Shown here: one piece after another, positions 3,061 to 46,310 of the stretch
Position numbering within the stretch: the stretch's first letter is position 1
Layout: every line of letters starts with the position of its first letter
Sequence record: OQ708376.1
Strand: one strand, 5' to 3'
DNA: 64,000 nt
Source: Escherichia phage vB_EcoM_CRJP21
Made by a program: the position numbers and the translations under genes
Notes under the pieces: generated by a model
The model's input: only the letters and a program-made list of their open reading frames with translations
What the model was told of the DNA's origin: nothing
The model's database searches: none

Positions 3061-3324
3061 ATGAATATTAAAGATAGATTACAATTACTGTACACACTTG
3101 AACAGGCTGCTTATGATCTTGTTCGAAAAATCTCAGATGAACTACCTAAAGGAACTAAAGTTCGTGTACGTGAGATGAATTATTTTTCTGGAGTAATTGA
3201 AGAACAAGTACTAACAGTGAATAAAGTAACATACTATGAATCTGAGTTGTCTATTCAGTGTGAATCTGATGATGGATTAATATCATATTATGGAACTGAT
3301 GTAGATATAGAGGTAATAAAATGA
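3061..3324 (+). CDS. hypothetical small protein
   Basis: ATG at 3061 after GGTGGA; track ORF 3016-3324. Confidence 0.45.
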   Translation: MNIKDRLQLLYTLEQAAYDLVRKISDELPKGTKVRVREMNYFSGVIEEQVLTVNKVTYYESELSIQCESDDGLISYYGTDVDIEVIK

Positions 3325-4463
3325 CCCTTTTGCAAATATATGAAGATTTAATGCACTTATGTAATACAAACGATGCATTCTTTTATGTGGATCATAAAAG
3401 TCCTGCTGGTGGCACGTATCGTGTATTCAGTTATCGTCTAGCATCATACACTGATTTCATGCAACCAAATGCGTTGGAAACCCGTGGCTCTATGTGGGAA
3501 ATTGATGAAGAAGGTGACATGATACGTTGTGCAGCACGTACAATGAAAAAGTTCTTCAATGCTTACGAGAATCCTGCTACAATGTTCCCTGCTAACACCA
3601 CATGCGATGACATTGCGGTAGTGATGCCTAAGTTGGATGGCTCGATCATCAGTACTTATCGTGATAATGATGGTGAGATTCGTTGTAAATCACATACTGC
3701 ATTGTATTCTGACCATGCGATTAACAGTACTCGACTTATTAACGAGAACCAGAATTTGTATCAGTACATCGACGAAGCGGAACGTTTAGGTTACACAGTT
3801 AATATGGAGTATACAAGCCCAGAGTACCGAATTGTATTACCATATCAGGTAGAACAACTGTTTGTACTGAACGTTCGTCATCGTGTGAGTGGTGAGTTGC
3901 TATGTGGTAAAGCACTACGTGATAAGTTTCCATGTCTTGCACAGTACAGTACTAATATGACTGGAAAAGATATTCATCACACTTTTCCGGTACGAAATAC
4001 CTTCCGTGAAAGCGTGGAGGAAGTTCATAAAATGCTTGATATTGAGGGTTTTGTGTGCATCCTAAATAATGGGACAATGTGTAAAATAAAGACTGACTGG
4101 TACAGTTCATTACATCTTACAAAAGATAGTATTATTATTGATTCTCATTTATATGAAGCAGTATTAAATGGTTCAAGTGATGATTTAAAACAATTGTTCA
4201 GTACTGATGAATATGCTATGCAAAAGATATTAAGAATGGAACAATTGGTATTTTCGTGCTATAATGCATTACAAGATGAAGTAGAAAGCTTCGTCAAGGA
4301 ACACAAGCACTTGGAGCGAAAGGAATTCGCAATGAAGGTTCAGGAGTGTTTAACTAATGAACTGAATCGTCAGGGCTTGGCCTTTGCAATGTATAACAAT
4401 AAGAAAGTTGATTACAAAGAGACTCTTATAAAATACATGAAAATTGTACTAAAGGATTTTTAG
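3321..4463 (+). CDS. rnlA: RNA ligase 1 (T4 Rnl1-like)
   Basis: 380 aa; N-terminal region (FYVDHKSPAGGTYRVFSYRLASYTDF) matches T4 Rnl1 pattern; ligase motif I lysine in MPKLDGS. Confidence 0.85.
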   Translation: MTLLQIYEDLMHLCNTNDAFFYVDHKSPAGGTYRVFSYRLASYTDFMQPNALETRGSMWEIDEEGDMIRCAARTMKKFFNAYENPATMFPANTTCDDIAVVMPKLDGSIISTYRDNDGEIRCKSHTALYSDHAINSTRLINENQNLYQYIDEAERLGYTVNMEYTSPEYRIVLPYQVEQLFVLNVRHRVSGELLCGKALRDKFPCLAQYSTNMTGKDIHHTFPVRNTFRESVEEVHKMLDIEGFVCILNNGTMCKIKTDWYSSLHLTKDSIIIDSHLYEAVLNGSSDDLKQLFSTDEYAMQKILRMEQLVFSCYNALQDEVESFVKEHKHLERKEFAMKVQECLTNELNRQGLAFAMYNNKKVDYKETLIKYMKIVLKDF

Positions 4464-5559: not shown

Positions 5560-6492
5560 ATGCCAACTATTACACTAACAGTTGGATTACCTGGGTGTGG
5601 TAAAACCACATGGGCAGTTCAAGAAATTAAAAATGCCAAATCCAAGACTATCAACATCAACCGTGATGATATTCGTGAATCTATGGCTGGGTCACATGAT
5701 GCTTACAAATTCAACGATGCTAATGAGCAGTACGTAACTAATTTACAGTTCAGTGCAGCAAATTCAGCAGCAGAGAATGGTTGGAACATCATCATATCCG
5801 ATACAAACCTTAAACAACATTTCCGTAATCTCTGGAAAGTATGGGCTAAAGATAATGGTTATGATTACAAAGAAAAGAACTTCTATGATGATTTTGTACC
5901 TAATGAAGACCGTGGTGCAGATGTTCATGAATTCTTTAAGATTAAAGAGTTCGTAAAACTTTGTAAGAAATATAACCTCCAGCGTGAGCGTTCAGTACAA
6001 GATGATATCATTGACACAATGGCAGATACGTACTATTATAGTAAGGCATTGCACATTGGTTACTATGGTAATTCACGAGAAGCTGCTGTTATCGTTGATA
6101 TTGACGGTACTCTTGCTCATAAATGGGGTCGTAATCCTTACGATGAAAGTACTGTTCTTCAGGATACACCTGATGAAGAAGTTATTTTGTCTATTATCGC
6201 TGAAGCAGTTTTTCATAAACGCAAGATTATCGTCATGAGTGGGCGTACTGAAGGGTGTCGTGCTGATACCGAACAGTGGCTTAAGAATTGGGGTGTTCCT
6301 TACGATGCATTGTTTATGCGAGATATCGATGATAAACGTCCTGATGATGTTGTAAAATTCGACCTGTACATGAAAAATGTGGTTGATCATTACGATGTTA
6401 AAAAGGTATATGATGACCGAGCACAAGTCGTATTCATGTGGCGTAAGCTACTTGGTTTGAAAGTTTTTCAAGTTGCAGAAGGAAATTTCTAA
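5560..6492 (+). CDS. pseT: polynucleotide 5'-kinase / 3'-phosphatase (T4 Pnk-like)
   Basis: P-loop GLPGCGKTT, NINRDDIR, and HAD-type phosphatase motif VDIDGTL; colinear with T4 Pnk over full length. Confidence 0.85.
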   Translation: MPTITLTVGLPGCGKTTWAVQEIKNAKSKTININRDDIRESMAGSHDAYKFNDANEQYVTNLQFSAANSAAENGWNIIISDTNLKQHFRNLWKVWAKDNGYDYKEKNFYDDFVPNEDRGADVHEFFKIKEFVKLCKKYNLQRERSVQDDIIDTMADTYYYSKALHIGYYGNSREAAVIVDIDGTLAHKWGRNPYDESTVLQDTPDEEVILSIIAEAVFHKRKIIVMSGRTEGCRADTEQWLKNWGVPYDALFMRDIDDKRPDDVVKFDLYMKNVVDHYDVKKVYDDRAQVVFMWRKLLGLKVFQVAEGNF

Positions 6493-21428: not shown

Positions 21429-21623
21429 ATGATGGCATACACAATTTATGAATGGGTTTTGAGTTTTTTTATAGTTTTTTCTATTGTTGTAATTTATAAC
21501 AATGCTAAATGCTTATATAGGGACTTGAAATCCAATGGTTATCACAAAGATAATAATTTTATGTATGCCTATCATATTGGAATCATTCTGTTATTATCAA
21601 TATATTTAATTGTTTTTTTATAA
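21429..21623 (+). CDS. small membrane protein
   Basis: 64 aa, hydrophobic. Confidence 0.4.
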   Translation: MMAYTIYEWVLSFFIVFSIVVIYNNAKCLYRDLKSNGYHKDNNFMYAYHIGIILLLSIYLIVFL

Positions 21624-21632
21624 GGATTGAAT

Positions 21633-22385
21633 ATGATATCAGAAAAATTTATAAGCAATGAAGGTAAAAAGCGATTACTGATTATATCAGGTGCAGGACT
21701 TTCTGTTGAAAGTGGTATGGAACCTTTTCGATTTGATGATGGTTTGTGGGATACATTTAAAATTAATGATGTATGTAACATTGCTAGTTTAACTACGAAA
21801 TATCACGTTGTTCATTCCTTCTATAATACATTACGTGTAAAATTGGGTCAATGCAAACCCAATGCAATGCATTATTTTATAAAATCGTTAGAAGATCAAT
21901 ATGGTGATTGCTTCCTTCATATGACTTCTAACATGGACGATCTTTATACTCGTATTGGTGGTCATGAGCTTAAACTTCATGGAAACTTGTGCGAAGTTAT
22001 TGAAAATTATAGTATCAATTCCGATGATTATAATGTTATTAACTGCGGATACGAACCATACATACCAAAACATGATGTTTTTGCCAAACCAAATGTAGTA
22101 ATGATTGGAGAATATCATCGTTATGTTGATGGTATTCGCTTACCAATTTACGAAGAACGAAATAATGTGTTGAAATCTCTTAATGAAAATGATACAGTTA
22201 TTGTAATTGGTAGTAGCGATACAGTACTGGTATGGTCGAGATTAGCAGCAGCATTACCATGTTATAGTGTTAATGTTAACATTCGTAAAAATGATAATGA
22301 TTTTTTGTTTAATGAAAAAGTTATCAAGCCAGCAACCAAAGCAATACCGCATCTAGAGACTATAATTAAGGAACGTATGAAATGA
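21633..22385 (+). CDS. Sir2-family (sirtuin/CobB-like) NAD-dependent enzyme
   Basis: GAGLSVESGMEPFR, HMTSNMDDL, catalytic LHGNL, VVMIGE, VIGSSDTV; lacks canonical CxxC zinc tetrad. Confidence 0.75.
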   Translation: MISEKFISNEGKKRLLIISGAGLSVESGMEPFRFDDGLWDTFKINDVCNIASLTTKYHVVHSFYNTLRVKLGQCKPNAMHYFIKSLEDQYGDCFLHMTSNMDDLYTRIGGHELKLHGNLCEVIENYSINSDDYNVINCGYEPYIPKHDVFAKPNVVMIGEYHRYVDGIRLPIYEERNNVLKSLNENDTVIVIGSSDTVLVWSRLAAALPCYSVNVNIRKNDNDFLFNEKVIKPATKAIPHLETIIKERMK

Positions 22386-22933
22386 GTGTTAAAGAAGTTC
22401 CCTTTGGTGAATATGGCACACGTGCAAATTTTGTATTTTGTTATTTCTTTGCAAGAAAATGCAACCCTTACAAAAACTATGAGTTGAATGATATACCAGA
22501 AGTAAATTTAGTATTACTGCAATTACGATGGGATGGTCTTCTTGGTGGATGTGGTGGAACCGTAGAAAGTACTGATATCTCACTAGAAGATGCGTTGCGT
22601 CGTGAAGTTCAAGAAGAAATGGATTACAATATTTTTGTTTCCCATCTTCGACCACTCAAAACTTTTGAAATTTACCCAGGTGCAAACAGTCACAGTTTTA
22701 GCTATGAAGTAACCTATGACGAGTTGAAACACATTAGAGATGGATACACTAATGCTAAACATGCAAGTGCAGAAGTTGCTGGTGTAAATTTATGTCATAT
22801 TTCGCGTTATTCTAAGGGACAAAATCGAGAAGCGGGATATAATAATCTTATGACACAGAACTTCATCGGTACAGCAAAACAAGAATTGGAGTATCTGGTT
22901 CAAAAAGAAAACTTACTAATTAGTTATCTATAG
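22382..22933 (+). CDS. Nudix-like hydrolase (divergent Nudix box)
   Basis: GGTVESTDISLEDALRREVQEEMDY approximates GX5EX7REUXEEXGU with a 3-residue insertion. Confidence 0.4.
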   Translation: MSVKEVPFGEYGTRANFVFCYFFARKCNPYKNYELNDIPEVNLVLLQLRWDGLLGGCGGTVESTDISLEDALRREVQEEMDYNIFVSHLRPLKTFEIYPGANSHSFSYEVTYDELKHIRDGYTNAKHASAEVAGVNLCHISRYSKGQNREAGYNNLMTQNFIGTAKQELEYLVQKENLLISYL

Positions 22934-22942
22934 GAGTTTAAC

Positions 22943-23263
22943 ATGTCTTACTCAATGTTTTTGGATGATATTCGTGATGCAAATCTATATTATCCAAACC
23001 AAGATATGGTGGTATGTCGTGACTTTAAAAGTGCATGTGAATATGTTATTGAAAATGGAATTCCAGCATTTGTATCATTCGACCATGACTTGGGTGATGT
23101 GAGCGAAGACGAAAAGACTGGATATTCTTTTGCTAAGTTTCTTATTGATTATATGTTTGATAATAATATTAAAGAACCGTTTGAGTACTTTGTTCACAGT
23201 AGTAATCCTGTTGGTAAAATTAATATTGAAACATACTTAAACAATGGATTTAACTCATTATGA
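22943..23263 (+). CDS. hypothetical protein
   Basis: 106-aa ORF. Confidence 0.45.
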   Translation: MSYSMFLDDIRDANLYYPNQDMVVCRDFKSACEYVIENGIPAFVSFDHDLGDVSEDEKTGYSFAKFLIDYMFDNNIKEPFEYFVHSSNPVGKINIETYLNNGFNSL

Positions 23264-39452: not shown

Positions 39453-39457
39453 TTTTA

Positions 39458-39486
39458 AAGCTCGTCTATTGACGGGCTTTTCTTTT
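39458..39486 (+). terminator. intrinsic terminator
   Basis: AGCTCGTC / GACGGGCT stem then TTTTCTTTT. Confidence 0.55.
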
Positions 39487-39497
39487 ATGTGTATAAT
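39469..39497 (+). promoter_or_regulatory. sigma70 promoter TTGACG-17-TGTGTATAAT
   Basis: overlaps the terminator stem. Confidence 0.45.
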
Positions 39498-39519: not shown

Positions 39520-40086
39520 ATGGTTAAATCTTTGCTACCACCACCAAAACGTCATAAAATCAAAGAAATGAAAGAACAACGTACATTAAAGATGTACAAC
39601 AATTTAGTTCAGTTACTGTGTAAAAGTCCATCGCTCAAAGCAGAGTTTAAAACTGATGATGACCGCAAAGCACTAATTGAGATGAAGTATATGCTCAGTA
39701 AAATGTCCTTTTACAAATTTGTAAAAGAATACACAACTGACCCATTTAGTCCTCGTTGGAGATCCAAACCAAGAGAGTATTTTTACGGTGGTTCATATAC
39801 GGATCGCATTCAAGACACAGTGATGGGAGTTGAATTTGAAATCGATTATGAGCCGAATGGTGTGGAAAGCTGGCCGATTGAGAAACGTTTACCAAGTGAA
39901 GAAGAAATTTATGTTTATGCAAGAAAACTTTCAAATTTCAGTTCAAGAATTACTCTAGGCAATTTAGATTCATTTATTATTTTCTATACACGTGTTGGTG
40001 TAGATAAAATGGTAACTAAACTCAATGAACTTTCATTACAACAAAAACAGATTAATGCATACAAAGACATTACTGATTTATACTAA
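39520..40086 (+). CDS. hypothetical protein, tandem paralog 1 of 3
   Basis: 188 aa; shares a conserved segment with the next two genes. Confidence 0.5.
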   Translation: MVKSLLPPPKRHKIKEMKEQRTLKMYNNLVQLLCKSPSLKAEFKTDDDRKALIEMKYMLSKMSFYKFVKEYTTDPFSPRWRSKPREYFYGGSYTDRIQDTVMGVEFEIDYEPNGVESWPIEKRLPSEEEIYVYARKLSNFSSRITLGNLDSFIIFYTRVGVDKMVTKLNELSLQQKQINAYKDITDLY

Positions 40087-40098
40087 TGAGGAATGGAT

Positions 40099-40614
40099 AT
40101 GTTTTTTGGATCAGTTGGAAAACAAAACAGTACTTTAATTTGGCATGAAATTATCTTTAAAATTATATCTAAAAGCTACTCACTAAAGGATATTATTACC
40201 ACAGATAATGATAGACGTATCCTGTTAGATGCAAAATATAAATTGAGCAAACACCCTTTACTTTCTTTAATCATTGATTACGTTTGTGATTATGAATCTA
40301 GTCGTTGGAAGTGGGAAGACGGCGGTTTATTTCGTGGAAAAACATTCTACGGTGCGGAACGATATGTTTTCAGTGATACATCAAATGGCGTTAAGTTTGT
40401 TATTAGAAACTTTAACTCCAAAGAAAATGATTATCTTGAAAGTGGAGTGAAAGTATATATCGATAATAATAGCAATGTACTAACATATGACGAATCACTA
40501 ATTATGTTACAAATAATGCGTGGTGTTGAAGGTGTAAGAAACAACCTTACTAAATTGAAAATCCAGCAAAATGATATACATAATAGACAGAAAATTAAGG
40601 GTTTATATAAATGA
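40099..40614 (+). CDS. hypothetical protein, tandem paralog 2 of 3
   Basis: ATG 40099 after GAGGA (alternative ATG 40093). Confidence 0.5.
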   Translation: MFFGSVGKQNSTLIWHEIIFKIISKSYSLKDIITTDNDRRILLDAKYKLSKHPLLSLIIDYVCDYESSRWKWEDGGLFRGKTFYGAERYVFSDTSNGVKFVIRNFNSKENDYLESGVKVYIDNNSNVLTYDESLIMLQIMRGVEGVRNNLTKLKIQQNDIHNRQKIKGLYK

Positions 40615-41120
40615 TTTCATTTTTCAAAAAGAAACAAAAAGTTGATGAAACCGGATTAGAATCGTTTCTATGGACTCTTATCATCAAAAAAAGTCCATTG
40701 ATAAAAGAATATGCTATCAATGATGCTAATAGAAAAACTATCATTGAATACAAATATGAATTATCTAAATGTGATCCAATTGTTTATCACTTTGCGAAGT
40801 ACTGTTCAAAAAATTTATCGGATATCACAATCTACCACGAGTCAGTCCCAATGAGTTTTCCTTATGGTGATTGGGTAGATACTTTTGATATTTTTGATGG
40901 GTCAAATGGTTTCAGTTTCTTTTACTCGTCAAATAAAGCAAGTGTTCGTATTAAAACAGACATAGGTTGGACAAAGCATAGCTCAAATAAAGAAGATTAT
41001 AATTTATTAGCTGACGTATACCGAAGTGTGAAGAATTCAAAGGATATTGATGAAAGAATTAAAAAGCAAAATCGTATATCTTTATCACTTGAAACATACA
41101 AGTCAAAGTATGGTGGTTAA
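40611..41120 (+). CDS. hypothetical protein, tandem paralog 3 of 3
   Basis: 169 aa. Confidence 0.5.
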   Translation: MISFFKKKQKVDETGLESFLWTLIIKKSPLIKEYAINDANRKTIIEYKYELSKCDPIVYHFAKYCSKNLSDITIYHESVPMSFPYGDWVDTFDIFDGSNGFSFFYSSNKASVRIKTDIGWTKHSSNKEDYNLLADVYRSVKNSKDIDERIKKQNRISLSLETYKSKYGG

Positions 41121-41122
41121 CT

Positions 41123-41524
41123 ATGACTACAGTTGATGATATCTATAGCACTATACGCAATATGAGTACAGATAGAAAAGTATTTGGCGATAAAGAAAAA
41201 TCTAAGTGTTATGGTATTGATTCTTTTGATATAATTTCTTATGAGTACAATACAAGTGGAAATAGTTCACTGAATATCGTCTGTCCTCGTGATCCAGAAA
41301 ATAATTTTATGTATGTTGAAATTAATAATGATGGAATGTTTTTTACAAAAGTTTTAAAAGGTGGAATTAATTACGAACCTATTGAATGTATGAATGAAGA
41401 AACTTTCTTTCAAGAAGATACAATTATCAATTTAGGTTTTAGTTTTGATGATTATAAAACATTAGAACATGACTTTAATCGTTATTATAATGGTTTCTTA
41501 AAGGAGTTAACAATTTATCTATGA
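41123..41524 (+). CDS. hypothetical protein
   Basis: 133-aa ORF. Confidence 0.5.
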   Translation: MTTVDDIYSTIRNMSTDRKVFGDKEKSKCYGIDSFDIISYEYNTSGNSSLNIVCPRDPENNFMYVEINNDGMFFTKVLKGGINYEPIECMNEETFFQEDTIINLGFSFDDYKTLEHDFNRYYNGFLKELTIYL

Positions 41525-42753
41525 ATAACCAATATATTGAACAAACAATAGTGAAACACTTGGCTGGGTCACAAGCCTACGGAACCAGTACACCTGAAAG
41601 TGATACTGATTATCGTGGTATTTTTCTTGCTAATAAAGAATTTATTCTTACACCCTTCTATAAGGTCAAAGAGGTAGCTGATAAAAGCGAAGAAGATACT
41701 AAATTCTATGAGTTGAATCAGTATTTAAAATTATACACTGAAGCTAACCCTAATATTCTTGAATCACTTTGGGTTGAACCTGAACACATTGTTGAAAGTA
41801 CTGAAATTTATGACTATCTTCGTTCATTTAACCAAAAACTTCTTAGTTCCAAGATTGCATTTTCATACACTGGATATGCATATAATCAGATTAAGCGTAT
41901 GACAAATCATCACGGTTGGATGGATAAAGAGCGTATTGCTGAAAAACGATTAAATGAGATTTTAGAAGAACACCCAGTCGATGAGGTTCTTGCGTGGATG
42001 TATGATTCATTTCCACAATATCTTGTTGAACGTTTAGATACATCGAACTTACATCCATTTAATGCTAAAAAGATTGATTTTGAAAAATATATGCGTGATA
42101 CGTCATTGCAGTTAGTTTCGAAAAATCCATTAAAGCAATATCATTTTGTAAGATTAGTGCATAACTACACTACTGATAAAATTCTAGATCGTGATTTCAA
42201 TTTATTGAATTTTAATAATGGCTATGAACTAATTCATTACGGAGAAAACATTTTTGCGATTATTAAAAATCCGAATGAAAGTACTATCAATGGTGATGGT
42301 TCATTGCGTTATTTTTCTAAAGAGCGTAGTACTGAAGAGTTGAAAACCAAACCAGAACTGATTGTCAAATTTAACGAAAAAGAATATCAGGAAAATAGTG
42401 AGAATAGGAAAAGTTATCATAAATGGAAAGAAAATCGTAATGCCAAACGTGCTATTTTAGAATCACAGCACGGATACGATTGTAAACATGCTATGCACAC
42501 AATCCGACTTTTGAATAGTGCAGAAGAAGCATTACAAAGTGGTATTATTCAAGTTAAACGTCCTGATGCACAAATGCTGATGGATATTCGCAATGGTAAG
42601 TGGAAATATGAAGAAGTATTAGAATACTTTGATGATAAAGTAAAATATATTCGTGATGTTCTATATAAGAAATCTGTACTTCCTAAAAAACCAAACATCA
42701 AATTAGCATCAAAAATTATCATTGATATTAGAGAAATGCAATGGTATAAGTAA
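41521..42753 (+). CDS. Pol-beta superfamily nucleotidyltransferase
   Basis: N-terminal GSQAYGTSTPESDTDYRGIF fits GS...SDxD nucleotidyltransferase signature. Confidence 0.55.
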   Translation: MNNQYIEQTIVKHLAGSQAYGTSTPESDTDYRGIFLANKEFILTPFYKVKEVADKSEEDTKFYELNQYLKLYTEANPNILESLWVEPEHIVESTEIYDYLRSFNQKLLSSKIAFSYTGYAYNQIKRMTNHHGWMDKERIAEKRLNEILEEHPVDEVLAWMYDSFPQYLVERLDTSNLHPFNAKKIDFEKYMRDTSLQLVSKNPLKQYHFVRLVHNYTTDKILDRDFNLLNFNNGYELIHYGENIFAIIKNPNESTINGDGSLRYFSKERSTEELKTKPELIVKFNEKEYQENSENRKSYHKWKENRNAKRAILESQHGYDCKHAMHTIRLLNSAEEALQSGIIQVKRPDAQMLMDIRNGKWKYEEVLEYFDDKVKYIRDVLYKKSVLPKKPNIKLASKIIIDIREMQWYK

Positions 42754-42921: not shown

Positions 42922-43458
42922 ATGATGGTTTTAACATTGTCAGTACTCGGATCTATTGATGGTGAAGATAGTTCTCTTAGTGATTCTGTGATTGCATCAT
43001 TCGGAACTAATAAAAACAGTTCTTTTATTATATCTGGATGGACTGGAATGACTGATTCTGAAAATAATGTTAAGATAAAAGCTAAAGCTACTAACGAGAA
43101 TCATGAAACAGAATGGGTAACATTATATGATAGTGCAAGTAATAAGTTATATAATGTATTAAGTTCTAATAATATTTTAATTAATCCACTGTCGGGCAAT
43201 GCTGTTTTTAATATTAATTTATCTGATAGAAATACTACTATTTCGATTGGTGCGGCTCCTACTGAAGTTTATTCAATTACCATCCTATTAACACAACAAA
43301 CAGGTTCAAACCTAGTTAATTGGGGTTCTAATGTTAAATGGTCATATAACAGACCAGTTGTTCTTTCTTATGAAATTGGTGAAAAAGATATTATTTCATT
43401 AGAAACATATGATAAAGGAGTTACATGGTACGGTGCATTAATTAGAGCAGGAGTATGA
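42922..43458 (+). CDS. hypothetical beta-rich protein (possibly fused to upstream ORF 42831-42959 via frameshift)
   Basis: no RBS at 42922; upstream ORF with AAGGA RBS ends at 42959 in another frame; A5 run at 42918-42922. Confidence 0.4.
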   Translation: MMVLTLSVLGSIDGEDSSLSDSVIASFGTNKNSSFIISGWTGMTDSENNVKIKAKATNENHETEWVTLYDSASNKLYNVLSSNNILINPLSGNAVFNINLSDRNTTISIGAAPTEVYSITILLTQQTGSNLVNWGSNVKWSYNRPVVLSYEIGEKDIISLETYDKGVTWYGALIRAGV

Positions 43459-43459
43459 T

Positions 43460-46249
43460 ATGTTAAACAATAATATTGATAATATTGTACAACTTCTTTA
43501 TGGGCATCACAAATTTATTGAAAGAAATACTGGTGATACAATAGACCCAACAGTACAACATTATGTGGTGAATAATCAGGGTGTTTTGGCGAACAACCGT
43601 CATTTTATTAACTATTCTGCAATGGAAGGTCAACCAAACGGTGACGGGACAACAGAAGGTCAAAGTCTATTAATTTTGGGATACATTTATGCGTATCTGG
43701 CAACAAATGATCCAATGTTTTTAGATAAAGCCAAATGGTACTGGGATGCATATCATCAGTACTTTTATGCTGGACGTGAATTACCAGACCCACCAACTCC
43801 ACTTCAATGTAACTGGATAGTTAATGCCAAAGAACCGATTTTGGCTAACTGGCCTTTAGCTGATGATGGATGGCCTACACATGGTGGTTTCAAGGGTGTA
43901 GAATTTACATTTACAAATGGACAATGTAAAATACCACATGGTGCACCTTATTATGGTCAGTTCTTGGATAAAGTAACATTCGCATTCAAAGGTGCTTTAG
44001 CATGGAACCAAATAAATGCGTCAGTAAAAGCATTACTACCAGATGGTAGTGTTGATTGGGATACCCCTGGTGATCAATATGATGTTGACTGGATTATTGA
44101 TTTCATGGGTAGAAAAATCGACTGGGATGGTAATATTTTAGCAGAAGGTTTTGACGAATCTGAAAAAGGAACGGTTCAATTAAAAAATACAACAATTAAT
44201 GGTGTATATAAATTAAATTTTGCTAATCGTCAACCAGTAGAATATGGTGGTGTGATAATTCAACGAAATGAAATGCAACACAACCGACCACTTCATGTTC
44301 CAATTGATTTGGAATTTGCGGATAATGCATCAGATGCAGAATTGTGGTTTAGTGATGCTTCTTATTTGTTATATAAAATAACAAAAGAAAGAAAACATTA
44401 TTTGGGTTGGAAATGTTCATTACTCACATGCTATGCTTATGGTGATATCGACTCCAGAGATAAATTTTTCAGACAAAGTACAATTGTAACCACACCATTC
44501 ACTGATGGTATTTCCTATGAATATTTTTATCCAAGTGATGCTATCGCTAAGTTTGGTAGAAATTCTTTAGGATATATTACTATCAGGCAAGACCAAAGTG
44601 CACAAAGTACAATGGAACAACAAGCTATTTGGTTCAGGGTCAATGCTGATTCTAAATTACTTGTAGATTATGGTGGTGTATGTGATGATGGTAAGCCGTT
44701 ATCATTTAAACCAGTACTGGAATTGTCTAAAACAAAAAATGATCATGATGTAGTAAGATATCGTTGTGGATTACCAGAAAGTAAAGACCAAAATATCACA
44801 CATTCATTAACACCTTTAAGTGCATTTGTTAGAGAAAAGAAAGCAGATGGTTCCCCTTATATAATTGCTGATAGTAGAATAGTTGTTCCTTATGGTGCAG
44901 CTACGTCCGAAATGATATATAGTACTGATATATTAGTTACACGCCGAGATACCATTAATCAGTTAGTTTGTGGTGAAGATGATGGTGCTGTTATTGGATT
45001 TTGGCTATTAGCAACAAATAAGTCTGAAGTTAAATCTTTTACATATCGTTCATATGAAGATGATTACAATATAAGAATTGTAGATGATAATGGTTGGAGA
45101 TGGTGGTGGATGATTCCTGCAACACACGGGGAATGGACTACAATCACACTAAGTTCCGATACATTACGTTTATCTGGGTATCAGCCAAATCATCCAAGTT
45201 CTGACCCAAGACCAGATGCACCAGTATATAGTGAGCTAGAAGATATTACTATTTTACCTGATACAACCCCAGTAGATGGTGTTGCTGCAATAATTGATTG
45301 GTATTGTATTAATGACATTCCAGAATTATATACGGATGCTGACGGTGATGACTATACTATGACATTTTCAATAACAATTGCAGGTGAATCACCATATACT
45401 GCACAGTTAGGGGATTGTGTAATCAAAGATTATTTGTTAAACTCATTGCATTACACACCAGGAACAATACCATTTTCTAACATCACTGACCCGTATGCGA
45501 ACCAGTACTCAGGTTGGCGTGGTTTACCGTATCCAGGTTATCAATATCCAGTGATATATTGTTTTAAAGACCAGCCAGTAGATAACACACGCTTAGGAAA
45601 CATGTTAAGCTTTATGAAAGATTCCCAAACATGGTTTACTCAACAATTCGGTACTGTTGGTCCGTGTGCACAAGCATATGTTTGGAACCGCTGGGATAAC
45701 TTAAAATATGGTGAACCAGATACATTTACTATGCTACATTGGGGTGATCAAGCATGGAGTGGGTATGAACCACGTGCGTTCTTTGGGGCTGCCAGAGCAT
45801 GGCAAGAACTCGCAGAGAGAGGAATTGAACCACCAGCAGATCTTGTTGAATTTTGTGAGAATTGGATTCACTTTTTAATTCAATTTCAAAAAGATAATGA
45901 TGGTCGTTCACCAACAATCTTCAATAAAGATGGCACAGTTGAAGGTCCAGATTGGGACTTTACAGGTCATATGTGTGGGTTGTGGTTAGCTGGGGCTTGT
46001 GCTGCTGGATTGGCTGGATGTAAAATAGAAGGTCTAACAACACTCGCTGATAACTTAGTTCTCGAACTTCAAAAGAATTATGTTATTGTAAATCCAGGTT
46101 CCCCAATGAATGGTTCATGGAGTCCAGCAGTTAGAGAAGGTACTGATAATGGTATGTTTTTTGGTTTCTGGGCAGGTGAGATTATGCGTGGATTGGGGTT
46201 ATACTCAATGTACCGTTTAAACACACCAAATCGTTTCCGTGATTTATAA
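43460..46249 (+). CDS. large hypothetical protein (Trp-rich)
   Basis: 929-aa ORF. Confidence 0.55.
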   Translation: MLNNNIDNIVQLLYGHHKFIERNTGDTIDPTVQHYVVNNQGVLANNRHFINYSAMEGQPNGDGTTEGQSLLILGYIYAYLATNDPMFLDKAKWYWDAYHQYFYAGRELPDPPTPLQCNWIVNAKEPILANWPLADDGWPTHGGFKGVEFTFTNGQCKIPHGAPYYGQFLDKVTFAFKGALAWNQINASVKALLPDGSVDWDTPGDQYDVDWIIDFMGRKIDWDGNILAEGFDESEKGTVQLKNTTINGVYKLNFANRQPVEYGGVIIQRNEMQHNRPLHVPIDLEFADNASDAELWFSDASYLLYKITKERKHYLGWKCSLLTCYAYGDIDSRDKFFRQSTIVTTPFTDGISYEYFYPSDAIAKFGRNSLGYITIRQDQSAQSTMEQQAIWFRVNADSKLLVDYGGVCDDGKPLSFKPVLELSKTKNDHDVVRYRCGLPESKDQNITHSLTPLSAFVREKKADGSPYIIADSRIVVPYGAATSEMIYSTDILVTRRDTINQLVCGEDDGAVIGFWLLATNKSEVKSFTYRSYEDDYNIRIVDDNGWRWWWMIPATHGEWTTITLSSDTLRLSGYQPNHPSSDPRPDAPVYSELEDITILPDTTPVDGVAAIIDWYCINDIPELYTDADGDDYTMTFSITIAGESPYTAQLGDCVIKDYLLNSLHYTPGTIPFSNITDPYANQYSGWRGLPYPGYQYPVIYCFKDQPVDNTRLGNMLSFMKDSQTWFTQQFGTVGPCAQAYVWNRWDNLKYGEPDTFTMLHWGDQAWSGYEPRAFFGAARAWQELAERGIEPPADLVEFCENWIHFLIQFQKDNDGRSPTIFNKDGTVEGPDWDFTGHMCGLWLAGACAAGLAGCKIEGLTTLADNLVLELQKNYVIVNPGSPMNGSWSPAVREGTDNGMFFGFWAGEIMRGLGLYSMYRLNTPNRFRDL

Positions 46250-46250
46250 C

Positions 46251-46279
46251 TTGACATAGAAAAAGTAATTATGTATAAT
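46251..46279 (+). promoter_or_regulatory. consensus sigma70 promoter TTGACA-17-TGTATAAT
   Basis: TTGACA 46251-46256, TATAAT 46274-46279 with upstream TG. Confidence 0.6.
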
Positions 46280-46280
46280 T

Positions 46281-46310
46281 AGAGAACTTCATATGGAGTT
46301 CTCTTTTTTT
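46281..46310 (+). terminator. intrinsic terminator
   Basis: AGAGAACTTCAT / ATGGAGTTCTCT stem then TTTTTTT. Confidence 0.6.

Follow-up and report, generated by a model that had tools for sequence, protein, structure and literature searches.

A phage-type RlaP-family nucleotidyltransferase of Escherichia phage vB_EcoM_CRJP21 and its probable substrate

The nucleotidyltransferase gene and the genes around it

The analysed window comprises 64,000 nt of Escherichia phage vB_EcoM_CRJP21 (OQ708376.1); positions are given in window numbering, and all features described below lie on the plus strand. Positions 41521..42753 hold the coding sequence of a nucleotidyltransferase (NTase) of 410 aa plus stop, with its ATG at 41521 and its stop codon at 42751-42753, which is the ortholog of gp506 of phage 121Q. 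In translation the N-terminus reads ...HLAGSQAYGTSTPESDTDYRGIF, exactly as quoted in the preliminary description of this DNA. A Shine-Dalgarno-like AAGGAG, read from the sequence, stands 14 nt ahead of the ATG (41501..41506), and the start codon shares an ATGA (41521-41524) with the stop codon of the ORF directly upstream. This ORF (41123..41524) encodes a gp505-like protein of 133 aa (phrog_22376), and the two genes are possibly translationally coupled; the gp505-like ORF keeps its place immediately 5' of the NTase gene in 6 jumbo-phage loci, with identities as low as 40%.

The co-directional neighbours of the NTase gene are three paralogs, the gp505-like gene and two tail-fibre genes, and do not constitute an RNA-repair operon. 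Consensus scanning placed a sigma70-like promoter (TTGACG-17-TATAAT, 11/12 matches) and, overlapping it, a terminator hairpin at 39457..39497, where the transcription unit containing the NTase gene likely begins. The same type of scan placed a terminator hairpin behind a perfect sigma70-like promoter at 46251..46304, the likely end of a unit that would span the paralog trio, the gp505-like gene, the NTase gene and both tail-fibre genes. Total promoter counts were no higher than in shuffled controls, and only these two intergenic terminator-promoter pairs were noteworthy. The paralog trio (39520-41120) was considered as a counterpart of the 'par164' paralogs that follow the NTase in other jumbo phages, an identity we rejected in view of the missing HMM match; a weak local similarity to cluster c36 is the sole relation found. 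Searches of the window returned no tRNA genes, and no effector-like gene is present among the neighbours of the NTase there.

The Rnl1, Pnk and CCA enzymes named in the preliminary description were all recovered in the window. A T4 Rnl1-like RNA ligase is encoded at 3321..4463 (2c5u, E=1.5e-56) and a T4 Pnkp-like polynucleotide kinase-phosphatase at 5560..6492 (1ltq, E=1.5e-40, full length); both are presumed pathway partners of the NTase and lie 35-37 kb from it, with the ligase 37 kb upstream. A class II CCA-adding/poly(A) polymerase-type tRNA nucleotidyltransferase is encoded 16 kb downstream (58537..59649).

At the DNA level the NTase gene is 97% identical to gp506 of the jumbo coliphage 121Q (Asteriusvirus), and since 31 of the codon differences between the two are synonymous and 5 nonsynonymous, the gene is under purifying selection. 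The Asteriusvirus orthologs (121Q gp506, slurp01 and PBECO4) share 94-97% nucleotide and at most 99.3% amino-acid identity with the NTase and occupy the same slot, with gp502-505 genes on one side and tail-fibre genes on the other. They show no substantive difference from it and already carry the annotation 'nucleotidyltransferase'. The result for the gene itself is therefore an ordinary one, the gene having been annotated and its family described before.

Family, active site and domain architecture

The NTase scored 59.2 bits (E=6.4e-16; cut-off 23) with the Pfam family PF10127 (RlaP), and matched the 'nucleotidyltransferase' profile phrog_388 over its full length with E=2e-76. These matches, far above chance, bear out the earlier view of the gene product as a Pol-beta superfamily nucleotidyltransferase. 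Among the clades then proposed as candidates the protein belongs to PF10127, on which its homologs agree: 844 were retrieved through a word index, with PF10127 present in all 120 among the matches listed, and 10,412 cluster representatives match the NTase at E<=1e-3. A search against NCBIfam gave one spurious sub-threshold match and nothing else, and no second PF10127 paralog was found within the window. The RlaP family was reportedly defined by Burroughs and Aravind in 2016, and its name stems from a gene-neighbourhood association with RNA ligases. The Pfam match covers only profile positions 24-144 of 249, leaving the C-terminal half without a match, and delimits the Pol-beta core to aa 13-131 (41557..41913). 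In the AF2 model the strands of this core run over residues 9-15, 30-35, 51-54 and 60-64.

Residue conservation was counted over 228 homologs with 28-97% identity. The GS...[DE]x[DE] signature reported in the preliminary description is present as G16-S17 of an hG[GS] motif (41566..41571) followed by the metal-binding carboxylates D28-x-D30 (41602..41610), to which we add D59 (41695..41697) as the putative third catalytic carboxylate. G16 and S17 are both kept in 224/228 homologs, the remainder being gaps, D28 in 222/228 and D30 in 224/228, with E in 1 more; the D59 column holds D in 213/228 and E in 14. This column is acidic across all paralog types, including canonical RlaP, the long paralogs and T4 NrdC.11, whereas the E64 column is not always acidic. 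The five catalytic residues are thus conserved in about 97-100% of the homologs, and the acidic positions on which the earlier catalytic reading depended are maintained. As judged from these alignments, the active site of the NTase is intact, and the protein belongs to the T4 NrdC.11-like or 'phage-type' branch of RlaP/PF10127.

Beyond the core, three further parts can be distinguished from homolog comparison and the AF2 model. A helical insertion of ~60 aa (aa ~135-198; 41923..42114) is found in the jumbo-phage forms and in a few homologs of ~407-436 aa, and is missing in the ~350-aa forms. It is followed by a beta-rich subdomain specific to the subfamily (aa ~205-285; 42133..42375), for which neither hhalign nor the structure in the RlaP preprint provides a counterpart in canonical RlaP. 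The third part, a HEPN/KNTase-C-like helical module (aa 286-410; 42376..42750), is modelled as a bundle over aa 286-409 with a long helix as its last element, and contains the invariant residues W302, R306, N307, R310, E314, D320, K322, H326, R329, R347, D349 and R357. Its signature, GYD[C/T]KHAMHxxR...RPDA, is invariant in the subfamily and includes the motif GYDCKHAMHTIR (aa 318-329; 42472..42507), as seen in the homolog alignment. At least 11 homologs carry an intein-like insertion of ~330 aa straight after D320, with LAGLIDADG detected in one, and the module is a recurrent intein insertion site. HEPN RNase activity of the bundle was considered and rejected, the His of the Rx4-6H-like string R310...H317 being unconserved.

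An hhalign comparison with 15 canonical-type RlaP paralogs was confident to about aa 131 only, suggesting that the phage-type subfamily and the characterised Pseudomonas RlaPs share no more than the ~130-aa core; the substrate specificity of the latter is therefore not simply transferable to the NTase. A PDB sequence search gave zero matches even at E<=10, the PfRlaP structure apparently lying outside the searched set, and Foldseek against the PDB gave nothing at E<=1e-3 and no close structural match of the RlaP family. In six independent cluster representatives a DEDDh 3'-5' exonuclease is fused C-terminally to this type of NTase. The contigs of three such fusions examined for genomic context were short or heterogeneous and yielded no informative neighbourhood.

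Gene neighbourhoods and the probable substrate

Extension of RNA 3'-OH ends by canonical RlaPs was demonstrated in December 2025 for PfRlaP and PaRlaP, these Pseudomonas enzymes adding 1-2 NMP or dNMP with a preference for Mn2+ (bioRxiv 10.64898/2025.12.29.696909). Neither DNA nor protein serves as acceptor, and on a nicked tRNA mimic PfRlaP favours the 3' end of the anticodon-loop break over the acceptor end (bioRxiv 10.64898/2025.12.29.696909). The 'unknown substrate' of the preliminary description is partly outdated by these results.

Neighbours were counted within ±8-10 kb of subfamily NTases, and within ±10 kb only in uncultured loci. A CCA enzyme was found near the NTase in 12 loci, 11 diverse viral ones and one MAG contig; it lay 0-3 genes upstream, at a median NTase identity of 45% in the viral loci. 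Phage KLEP7 has the gene order Pth2...CCA-NTase-metallophosphoesterase, a tRNA array adjoins the NTase in Vibrio phage 2.275.O, and in the Vequintavirinae the CCA enzyme gene is often next to it. In GAP31 the NTase likewise adjoins CCA and RNA ligase 2 (RnlB) is also encoded, which rules out the Vequintavirinae as a counter-example of an NTase without RNA ligase; NTase and RNA ligase occur in one genome in the phage of the window, T4 and GAP31. A Thg1-like gene was present near the NTase in 8 loci and Pnkp in 2, and among ~150 loci with an identified NTase gene Rnl1 was nearby in 1 and Rnl2 in 0. For the bacterial loci, RtcB lay within 8 kb of the NTase in 7/80 and RtcA in 3/80, where the estimated chance expectation is about 0.3.

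The CCA genes shortly 5' of the NTase, directly adjacent in KLEP7, together with the near absence of RNA ligases beside phage NTases (1/~150 loci), would fit a tRNA acceptor-end enzyme that partners the CCA enzyme independently of ligation and rebuilds discriminator-proximal or CCA nucleotides after 3'-exonuclease or toxin damage, instead of closing gaps in the anticodon loop. The DEDDh (RNase T-family) fusions would then allow ends to turn over by addition and removal. We nevertheless regard such a role as rather unlikely, given the preference of PfRlaP for the anticodon-loop break (bioRxiv 10.64898/2025.12.29.696909), the co-localisation of bacterial subfamily members with RtcB/RtcA, and the 16 kb that separate the CCA gene of the window from the NTase.

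A different picture emerged from the uncultured viral (IMG/VR) loci. In 48/80 of these the NTase lies inside a replication/recombination module of the order gp32-UvsX-NTase-x-UvsW-PolIII-alpha, with a UvsX-like recombinase directly upstream, at a median distance of 78 bp and co-oriented in 48/48, a gp32-like SSB also on the 5' side, and a UvsW-like helicase, a PolIII-alpha-like gene and a gp44-like clamp loader on the 3' side. Four ORFs downstream of the NTase in this group (u177, u152, u162 and u133) were considered as divergent DEDDh exonucleases and rejected, as none had HMM matches; hhalign of u177 and u152 gave no DEDDh signal either. The synteny, which persists while NTase identity within the group drops to 37%, may suggest that the phage-type subfamily works not on tRNA but on DNA or RNA-DNA primer 3' ends in recombination-dependent replication/repair, where template-free extension of ssDNA or primer ends in the care of gp32, UvsX and UvsW would be one possible task. 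Canonical RlaP accepts dNTPs as donors, which would agree with this, but leaves DNA unextended (bioRxiv 10.64898/2025.12.29.696909). The fused DEDDh domain might just as well be an exonuclease acting on DNA; other lineages, however, put the NTase next to CCA, Thg1, Pth2, tRNA arrays or RtcB, and in the window no replication gene adjoins it. Moreover, the 48 loci may represent one broad uncultured lineage and therefore few independent events. Weighing these points, we find a DNA or primer substrate improbable.

It is conceivable, at a similarly low probability, that the NrdC.11-like branch is functionally distinct from canonical RlaP. Its invariant C-terminal module would then be a new acceptor-recognition domain, with DNA or primer 3' ends as substrate inside the gp32-UvsX-UvsW machinery, or the enzyme would form half of a two-NTase machine, the phage-type NTase repeatedly adjoining canonical RlaP or being fused to it in bacteria; neither would be plain broken-tRNA fill-in.

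The preliminary description had offered two kinds of role, an RNA-end activity and a signalling or anti-defence one, and had pointed to a signature shared with CD-NTases and antibiotic NTases. The first is the best supported; identities of the latter kinds fell away, since no PADLOC model matched, CdnE appeared only at E=2.0 and TM 0.08 in Foldseek, and the best antibiotic (ANT/KNTase/Lnu) match, ANT(4'), reached E=0.02 with TM 0.2-0.3 and 10-12% identity. An enzyme that nucleotidylylates a protein or small molecule (AMPylase, antitoxin-like or ANT-like), as an anti-defence or host-takeover factor, is very unlikely. Similarities in this direction are those of a generic minimal NTase (none at E<=1e-3), the only Rx4-6H-like string has the variable His noted above, PfRlaP does not label proteins (bioRxiv 10.64898/2025.12.29.696909), and both the exonuclease fusions and the tRNA/RtcB neighbourhoods favour a nucleic-acid substrate. 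Less probable still is the production of cyclic nucleotides or free (deoxy)oligonucleotides as signals, or of decoys of these, by which host immunity would be manipulated (HalB-like or CD-NTase-like): the sequence shows no relation to CD-NTases, and the PF10127 assignment, the contexts and the fusions suit polymer-end chemistry.

Because of the DEDDh fusions, the CCA, Thg1 and RtcB neighbours, and the presence of Rnl1, Pnkp and the CCA enzyme in the window, the substrate of the NTase is probably a nucleic-acid 3' end, and probably that of a tRNA. The full explanation that we favour, with somewhat better than even confidence, is that the NTase adds one or more nucleotides to damaged RNA 3'-OH ends, most plausibly of tRNA. 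The minimal Pol-beta core (G16-S17, D28, D30, D59) would bind an NTP or dNTP together with two divalent metals, and the beta-subdomain with the basic C-terminal module (R306, N307, R310, D320, K322, H326, R329, R347, D349, R357) would line the opposite side of the cleft and bind the acceptor. In the likeliest reaction the end would grow, untemplated, by one nucleotide or a few, and the likeliest acceptor would be a tRNA that a host anticodon nuclease or other ribotoxin has cut or shortened; after extension, the phage Pnkp and Rnl1 could seal this end, or the CCA enzyme could complete it. The analysis itself establishes the family, the intact and conserved active site, the architecture, the purifying selection, the gene contexts and the domain fusions; the RNA 3'-end substrate, how many nucleotides are added and a part in counter-defence are inferred. 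The neighbourhood conservation invoked in the preliminary description is divided on this point: CCA, Thg1 and RtcB genes near subfamily NTases speak for RNA ends, whereas the position of the NTase outside any RNA-repair operon in the window and the lack of tRNA genes there speak against them, and the UvsX module in the majority of the uncultured loci points to DNA transactions.

If RNA-end addition is correct, Pnkp, Rnl1, the CCA enzyme and the RlaP-type NTase together give the phage a set of four RNA-end enzymes, which could reverse the action of nucleotide-excising 'smart' anticodon nucleases, a predicted and unproven layer of the arms race between phage and host. Of practical use is mainly what concerns the subfamily: its T4 member NrdC.11 is accessible to genetics, and mutagenesis and assays can now be aimed at the D28/D30/D59 triad, at the invariant K322/H326/R329 motif where the intein-like insertions cluster, at the fused exonucleases and at the pairing with canonical RlaP.

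Relation to known nucleotidyltransferases

Among the end-restoring NTases of jumbo phages, RlaP is reported to be the most prevalent, and its distribution to parallel that of the RNA ligases (PMC7824862). Like the NTase, the RlaPs of P. fluorescens and P. aeruginosa belong to PF10127, have a Pol-beta core with GS, DxD, a third Asp and helices ('NPN..E.L'), combine the NTase domain with a helical domain enclosing a cleft, and occur in genomes with RNA ligases. The NTase differs in its length (410 aa vs roughly 250-300 aa for canonical-type paralogs in bacterial loci), in its extra beta-subdomain, the mainly jumbo-phage helical insertion and the GYD[C/T]KHAMHxxR...RPDA motif, and in lying outside any rtcB-rtcA operon. 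Class II CCA-adding enzymes (PF01743) are also Pol-beta superfamily members and work template-independently at RNA 3' ends, but form a separate family; the NTase has no PF01743 match and matches PF10127 alone.

By alignment, the NTase is a full-architecture homolog of T4 NrdC.11 (NP_049709, 'nucleotidyltransferase'), with 29% identity in the N-terminal core (E=2e-13), 24% in the C-terminal module (E=3e-5) and a near-identical GSxxYGTSTPESDxD motif, and both phage genomes also encode Rnl1 and Pnkp. NrdC.11, which is dispensable in laboratory T4 (PMC9825161), is shorter (336 aa), lacks the jumbo-phage insertion, has Ser where the NTase has E64, and is flanked by different genes, nrdC.x and mobD.

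An RlaP-family nucleotidyltransferase with an intact active site

A single ORF at 41521-42753 on the plus strand (410 codons plus stop) was confirmed as a Pol-beta-type nucleotidyltransferase (NTase), far above chance expectation. Its N-terminus, read from the window sequence (MNNQYIEQTIVKHLAGSQAYGTSTPESDTDYRGIF...), is the same as that quoted in the preliminary description. An AAGGAG lies 14 nt 5' of the ATG, which shares an ATGA with the TGA of the preceding ORF. Residues 13-131 match Pfam PF10127 (RlaP, 'RNA repair pathway DNA polymerase beta family'; E=6.4e-16, 59.2 bits, gathering score 23), and phrog_388 'nucleotidyltransferase' matches over the full length (E=2e-76); nothing meaningful was matched in NCBIfam. 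A word-indexed search retrieved 844 homologs, with PF10127 in 120/120 of the matches listed, and a profile search of 1.84 billion representatives gave 10,412 at E<=1e-3 and 1,842 at E<=1e-30. Codon differences from the gene of phage 121Q are mostly silent (31 synonymous, 5 nonsynonymous), indicating purifying selection.

Residue conservation was counted over 228 homologs with 28-97% identity. G16 and S17 are present in 224 (the remainder being N-terminal gaps) and D28 in 222, while position 30 is Asp in 224 and Glu in 1, and position 59 is Asp in 213 and Glu in 14. The catalytic acidic residues, on whose conservation the initial proposal had been staked, are thus conserved. In a core alignment that took in the NTase, T4 NrdC.11, canonical short RlaPs and long bacterial paralogs, the D59 column is acidic throughout, whereas the E64 position is Ser in NrdC.11 and Ala in some others; on this basis we assign D28, D30 and D59 as the predicted metal-binding triad.

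Architecture of the phage-type branch

An AlphaFold2 model computed from 32 aligned sequences has high confidence (mean pLDDT 91.1, pTM 0.81). It comprises a minimal NTase core (strands at aa 9-15, 30-35, 51-54 and 60-64), a very long helix (aa 112-150) followed by short helices, a beta-rich subdomain (aa ~205-285) and a C-terminal helical bundle (aa 286-409). Canonical RlaPs can be aligned with it over the ~130-aa core only: the Pfam match covers positions 24-144 of the 249-position profile, a BLAST alignment with the canonical half of a tandem protein (P0262) took in aa 15-123 only, and hhalign against 15 canonical-type paralogs (97.7% probability) was confident only up to ~aa 131. T4 NrdC.11, by contrast, resembles the NTase at either end, with 29% identity (E=2e-13) in the N-terminal part and 24% (E=3e-5) in the C-terminal part.

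Within the C-terminal module W302, R306, N307, R310, E314, D320, R347, D349 and R357 are near-invariant, and K322, H326 and R329 occur in 228/228 homologs. At least 11 long homologs (P0121, P0123, P0094, P0125, P0131, P0132, P0139, P0145, P0195, P0210, P0228) carry a ~330-aa insertion exactly after D320, between GYD and [C/T]KHAMH, at the same site in all. This insertion appears intein-like, and LAGLIDADG was found in one homolog. Since the homing of inteins favours functionally critical motifs, the insertions would mark GYD[C/T]KHAMH as essential. A UvsW-like helicase at one viral locus (L114) also bears an intein.

In six independent 50%-identity cluster representatives this NTase type is fused to a C-terminal DEDDh 3'-5' exonuclease (PF00929, RNase_T family), an arrangement that would couple adding and removing activities on a polymer 3' end. 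Downstream of one such fusion (P0165, at L173:8001-11716) lie genes for Nmad3 (PF18754) and NADAR (PF08719), an unexplained setting of nucleotide/ADP-ribose processing.

Gene neighbourhoods in phages and bacteria

The window DNA is 94-97% identical to ~350-kb jumbo coliphages of the genus Asteriusvirus (121Q, PBECO4, slurp01, Sharanji and others), in whose records the gene is already named 'nucleotidyltransferase' (e.g. 121Q gp506). Upstream lie three paralogous ORFs in tandem, each encoding 169-188 aa (39520-40086, 40093-40614 and 40611-41120; phrog_18641, phrog_7868), that gave no Pfam match; the first two share 29% identity (E=3e-14), the third being more divergent. In other jumbo lineages a weakly related pair (cluster c36) takes the place of this trio. 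The ORF whose stop overlaps the NTase start (41123-41524, 133 aa, phrog_22376) resembles 121Q gp505, and a domain search of it found none. Because it is the immediate 5' neighbour of the NTase gene at 6 jumbo-phage loci, at identities down to 40%, its product may be a partner protein. Downstream are two tail-fibre genes (42922-43458 and 43460-46249). Consensus matches to a strong terminator hairpin and sigma70-like promoter (11/12) in the intergenic stretch 39457-39497, and to a sigma70-like promoter (12/12) and strong terminator hairpin in that at 46251-46304, plausibly enclose one transcription unit of small genes of no assigned function, the NTase and both tail-fibre genes.

As the preliminary description held, the phage also encodes homologs of T4 Rnl1 (3321-4463; E=1.5e-56 to 2c5u) and, at full length, T4 Pnkp (5560-6492; E=1.5e-40 to 1ltq), and a class II CCA-type enzyme (58537-59649). 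None of the three adjoins the NTase, and the window holds no tRNA genes and no further PF10127 paralog. Elsewhere (~21600-23000 and ~60900-61500, projected from 121Q gp476, gp477 and gp544), the 121Q annotation gives a Sir2-like protein, Nudix hydrolases and a macro-domain protein, possible NAD/ADP-ribose counter-defence genes.

The 80 IMG/VR loci examined yielded three syntenic groups, of 13, 11 and 48 loci. The first is of the jumbo-phage type seen in the window, with a Thg1-like tRNA-His guanylyltransferase ~four genes upstream in 7/13. The second comprises Vequintavirinae and relatives (median NTase identity 45%), with a CCA-adding enzyme 0-3 genes upstream. Phage KLEP7 has the order Pth2 ... 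CCA - NTase - metallophosphoesterase, and in Vibrio jumbo phage 2.275.O a tRNA array lies just downstream of the NTase. The NTase might repair acceptor ends together with the CCA enzyme, instead of filling gaps before ligation, a possibility we consider improbable. An adjoining RNA ligase is almost absent in phages (Rnl1 at 1 locus, Rnl2 at 0); GAP31 combines the CCA-NTase arrangement with RNA ligase 2, and is therefore no counter-example to the co-occurrence of NTase and ligase.

The third group consists of uncultured phages (L101-L166, e.g. L111:8722-12000; the longest contigs reach 363 kb) whose genes are arranged as gp32 - UvsX - NTase - u177 - u152 - UvsW - u162 - u133 - PolIII-alpha-like - GroES-like, with a clamp loader in some loci and NTase identity as low as 37%. 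The conserved ORFs u177, u152, u162 and u133 had no Pfam match, u162 matching phrog_11279 only. This conserved placement among gp32, UvsX and UvsW genes points, for at least some of the subfamily, to chemistry on DNA or primer ends, the main alternative to RNA end repair, although an improbable one in our estimate. In this group a ~418-aa ORF that combines Mom-like and REase_MTES_1575-like domains is inserted at different sites near the UvsX and NTase genes (L109, L134, L138, L143, L144, L152; representative L123:15948-17201, minus strand) and behaves like a mobile, homing-type element.

Among 80 bacterial loci no widely conserved neighbour was found. Within 8 kb of the NTase, RtcB is encoded at 7 loci and RtcA at 3, against a roughly estimated chance expectation of ~0.3 loci. 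A short canonical-type PF10127 gene adjoins the long phage-type one in ~15/80 (L021, L024, L026, L028, L032, L033, L052, L056, L066, L069, L074, L075, L080, L082, L087), and the two are fused in ~6/80 (L015, L018, L042, L062, L067, L070) and in P0262, in Myxococcota, Bacteroidota, Planctomycetota and others. This repeated pairing and fusion suggests a two-NTase unit. Three 'bacterial MAG' contigs (L009, 330 kb, from a Pseudobdellovibrionaceae MAG; L011; L017) show phage orders, either gp32-UvsX...clamp loader or CCA then NTase, and probably represent phage DNA that was binned into MAGs.

Predicted role and comparison with characterised RlaPs

The name RlaP, from RNA ligase association, was defined in Burroughs & Aravind 2016, as cited by PMC7824862 and bioRxiv 10.64898/2025.12.29.696909. 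The family and its presence in jumbo phages are already described: Iyer et al. 2021 (PMC7824862) found RlaP to be their commonest end-restoring NTase, with a distribution that parallels RNA ligases, and predicted that it replaces nucleotides removed by RloC-type nucleases, with ligation afterwards. In the genome paper on the close relative Sharanji the gene is listed, without evidence, among DNA repair functions. Two Pseudomonas RlaPs encoded in rtcB-rtcA operons were characterised by Carruthers, Fatma and Huang (bioRxiv 10.64898/2025.12.29.696909): both extend an RNA 3'-OH by one or two NMPs (or dNMPs), prefer Mn2+, act preferentially at the break when given a nicked tRNA mimic, and leave DNA and protein unmodified.

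The best-supported reading, towards which we lean, is that the NTase is a catalytically active NrdC.11-like RlaP-family enzyme that would add one or a few nucleotides to the 3'-OH of damaged RNA (tRNA), alongside Pnkp, Rnl1 and the CCA enzyme in a phage set of end-healing enzymes. The analysis directly establishes the family, the intact and conserved active site, the architecture, the selection and the gene contexts; we infer this substrate and role from distant homologs that have the core alone in common, and from guilt by association; they agree with the earlier suggestion of another RNA-end modifying activity. Nucleotidylylation of a protein or small molecule is unlikely, and so is synthesis of signal molecules, a signalling enzyme having also been envisaged at first. 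No PADLOC model matched the NTase.

T4 NrdC.11 itself is a family member without assigned function (bioRxiv 10.64898/2025.12.29.696909), and its loss left a genome-reduced T4 unharmed (PMC9825161). Although the finding is not surprising, several features of the phage-type branch are less known, as far as the literature shows: its invariant intein-targeted C-terminal motif, its recurrent DEDDh exonuclease fusions, its pairing or fusion with canonical RlaP in bacteria, and its place within the recombination module of one large uncultured phage group. These features make NrdC.11 and the window NTase reasonable targets for biochemistry, in a branch that, judging by alignment, differs from the characterised RlaPs everywhere beyond the core, a difference that is likewise less known.
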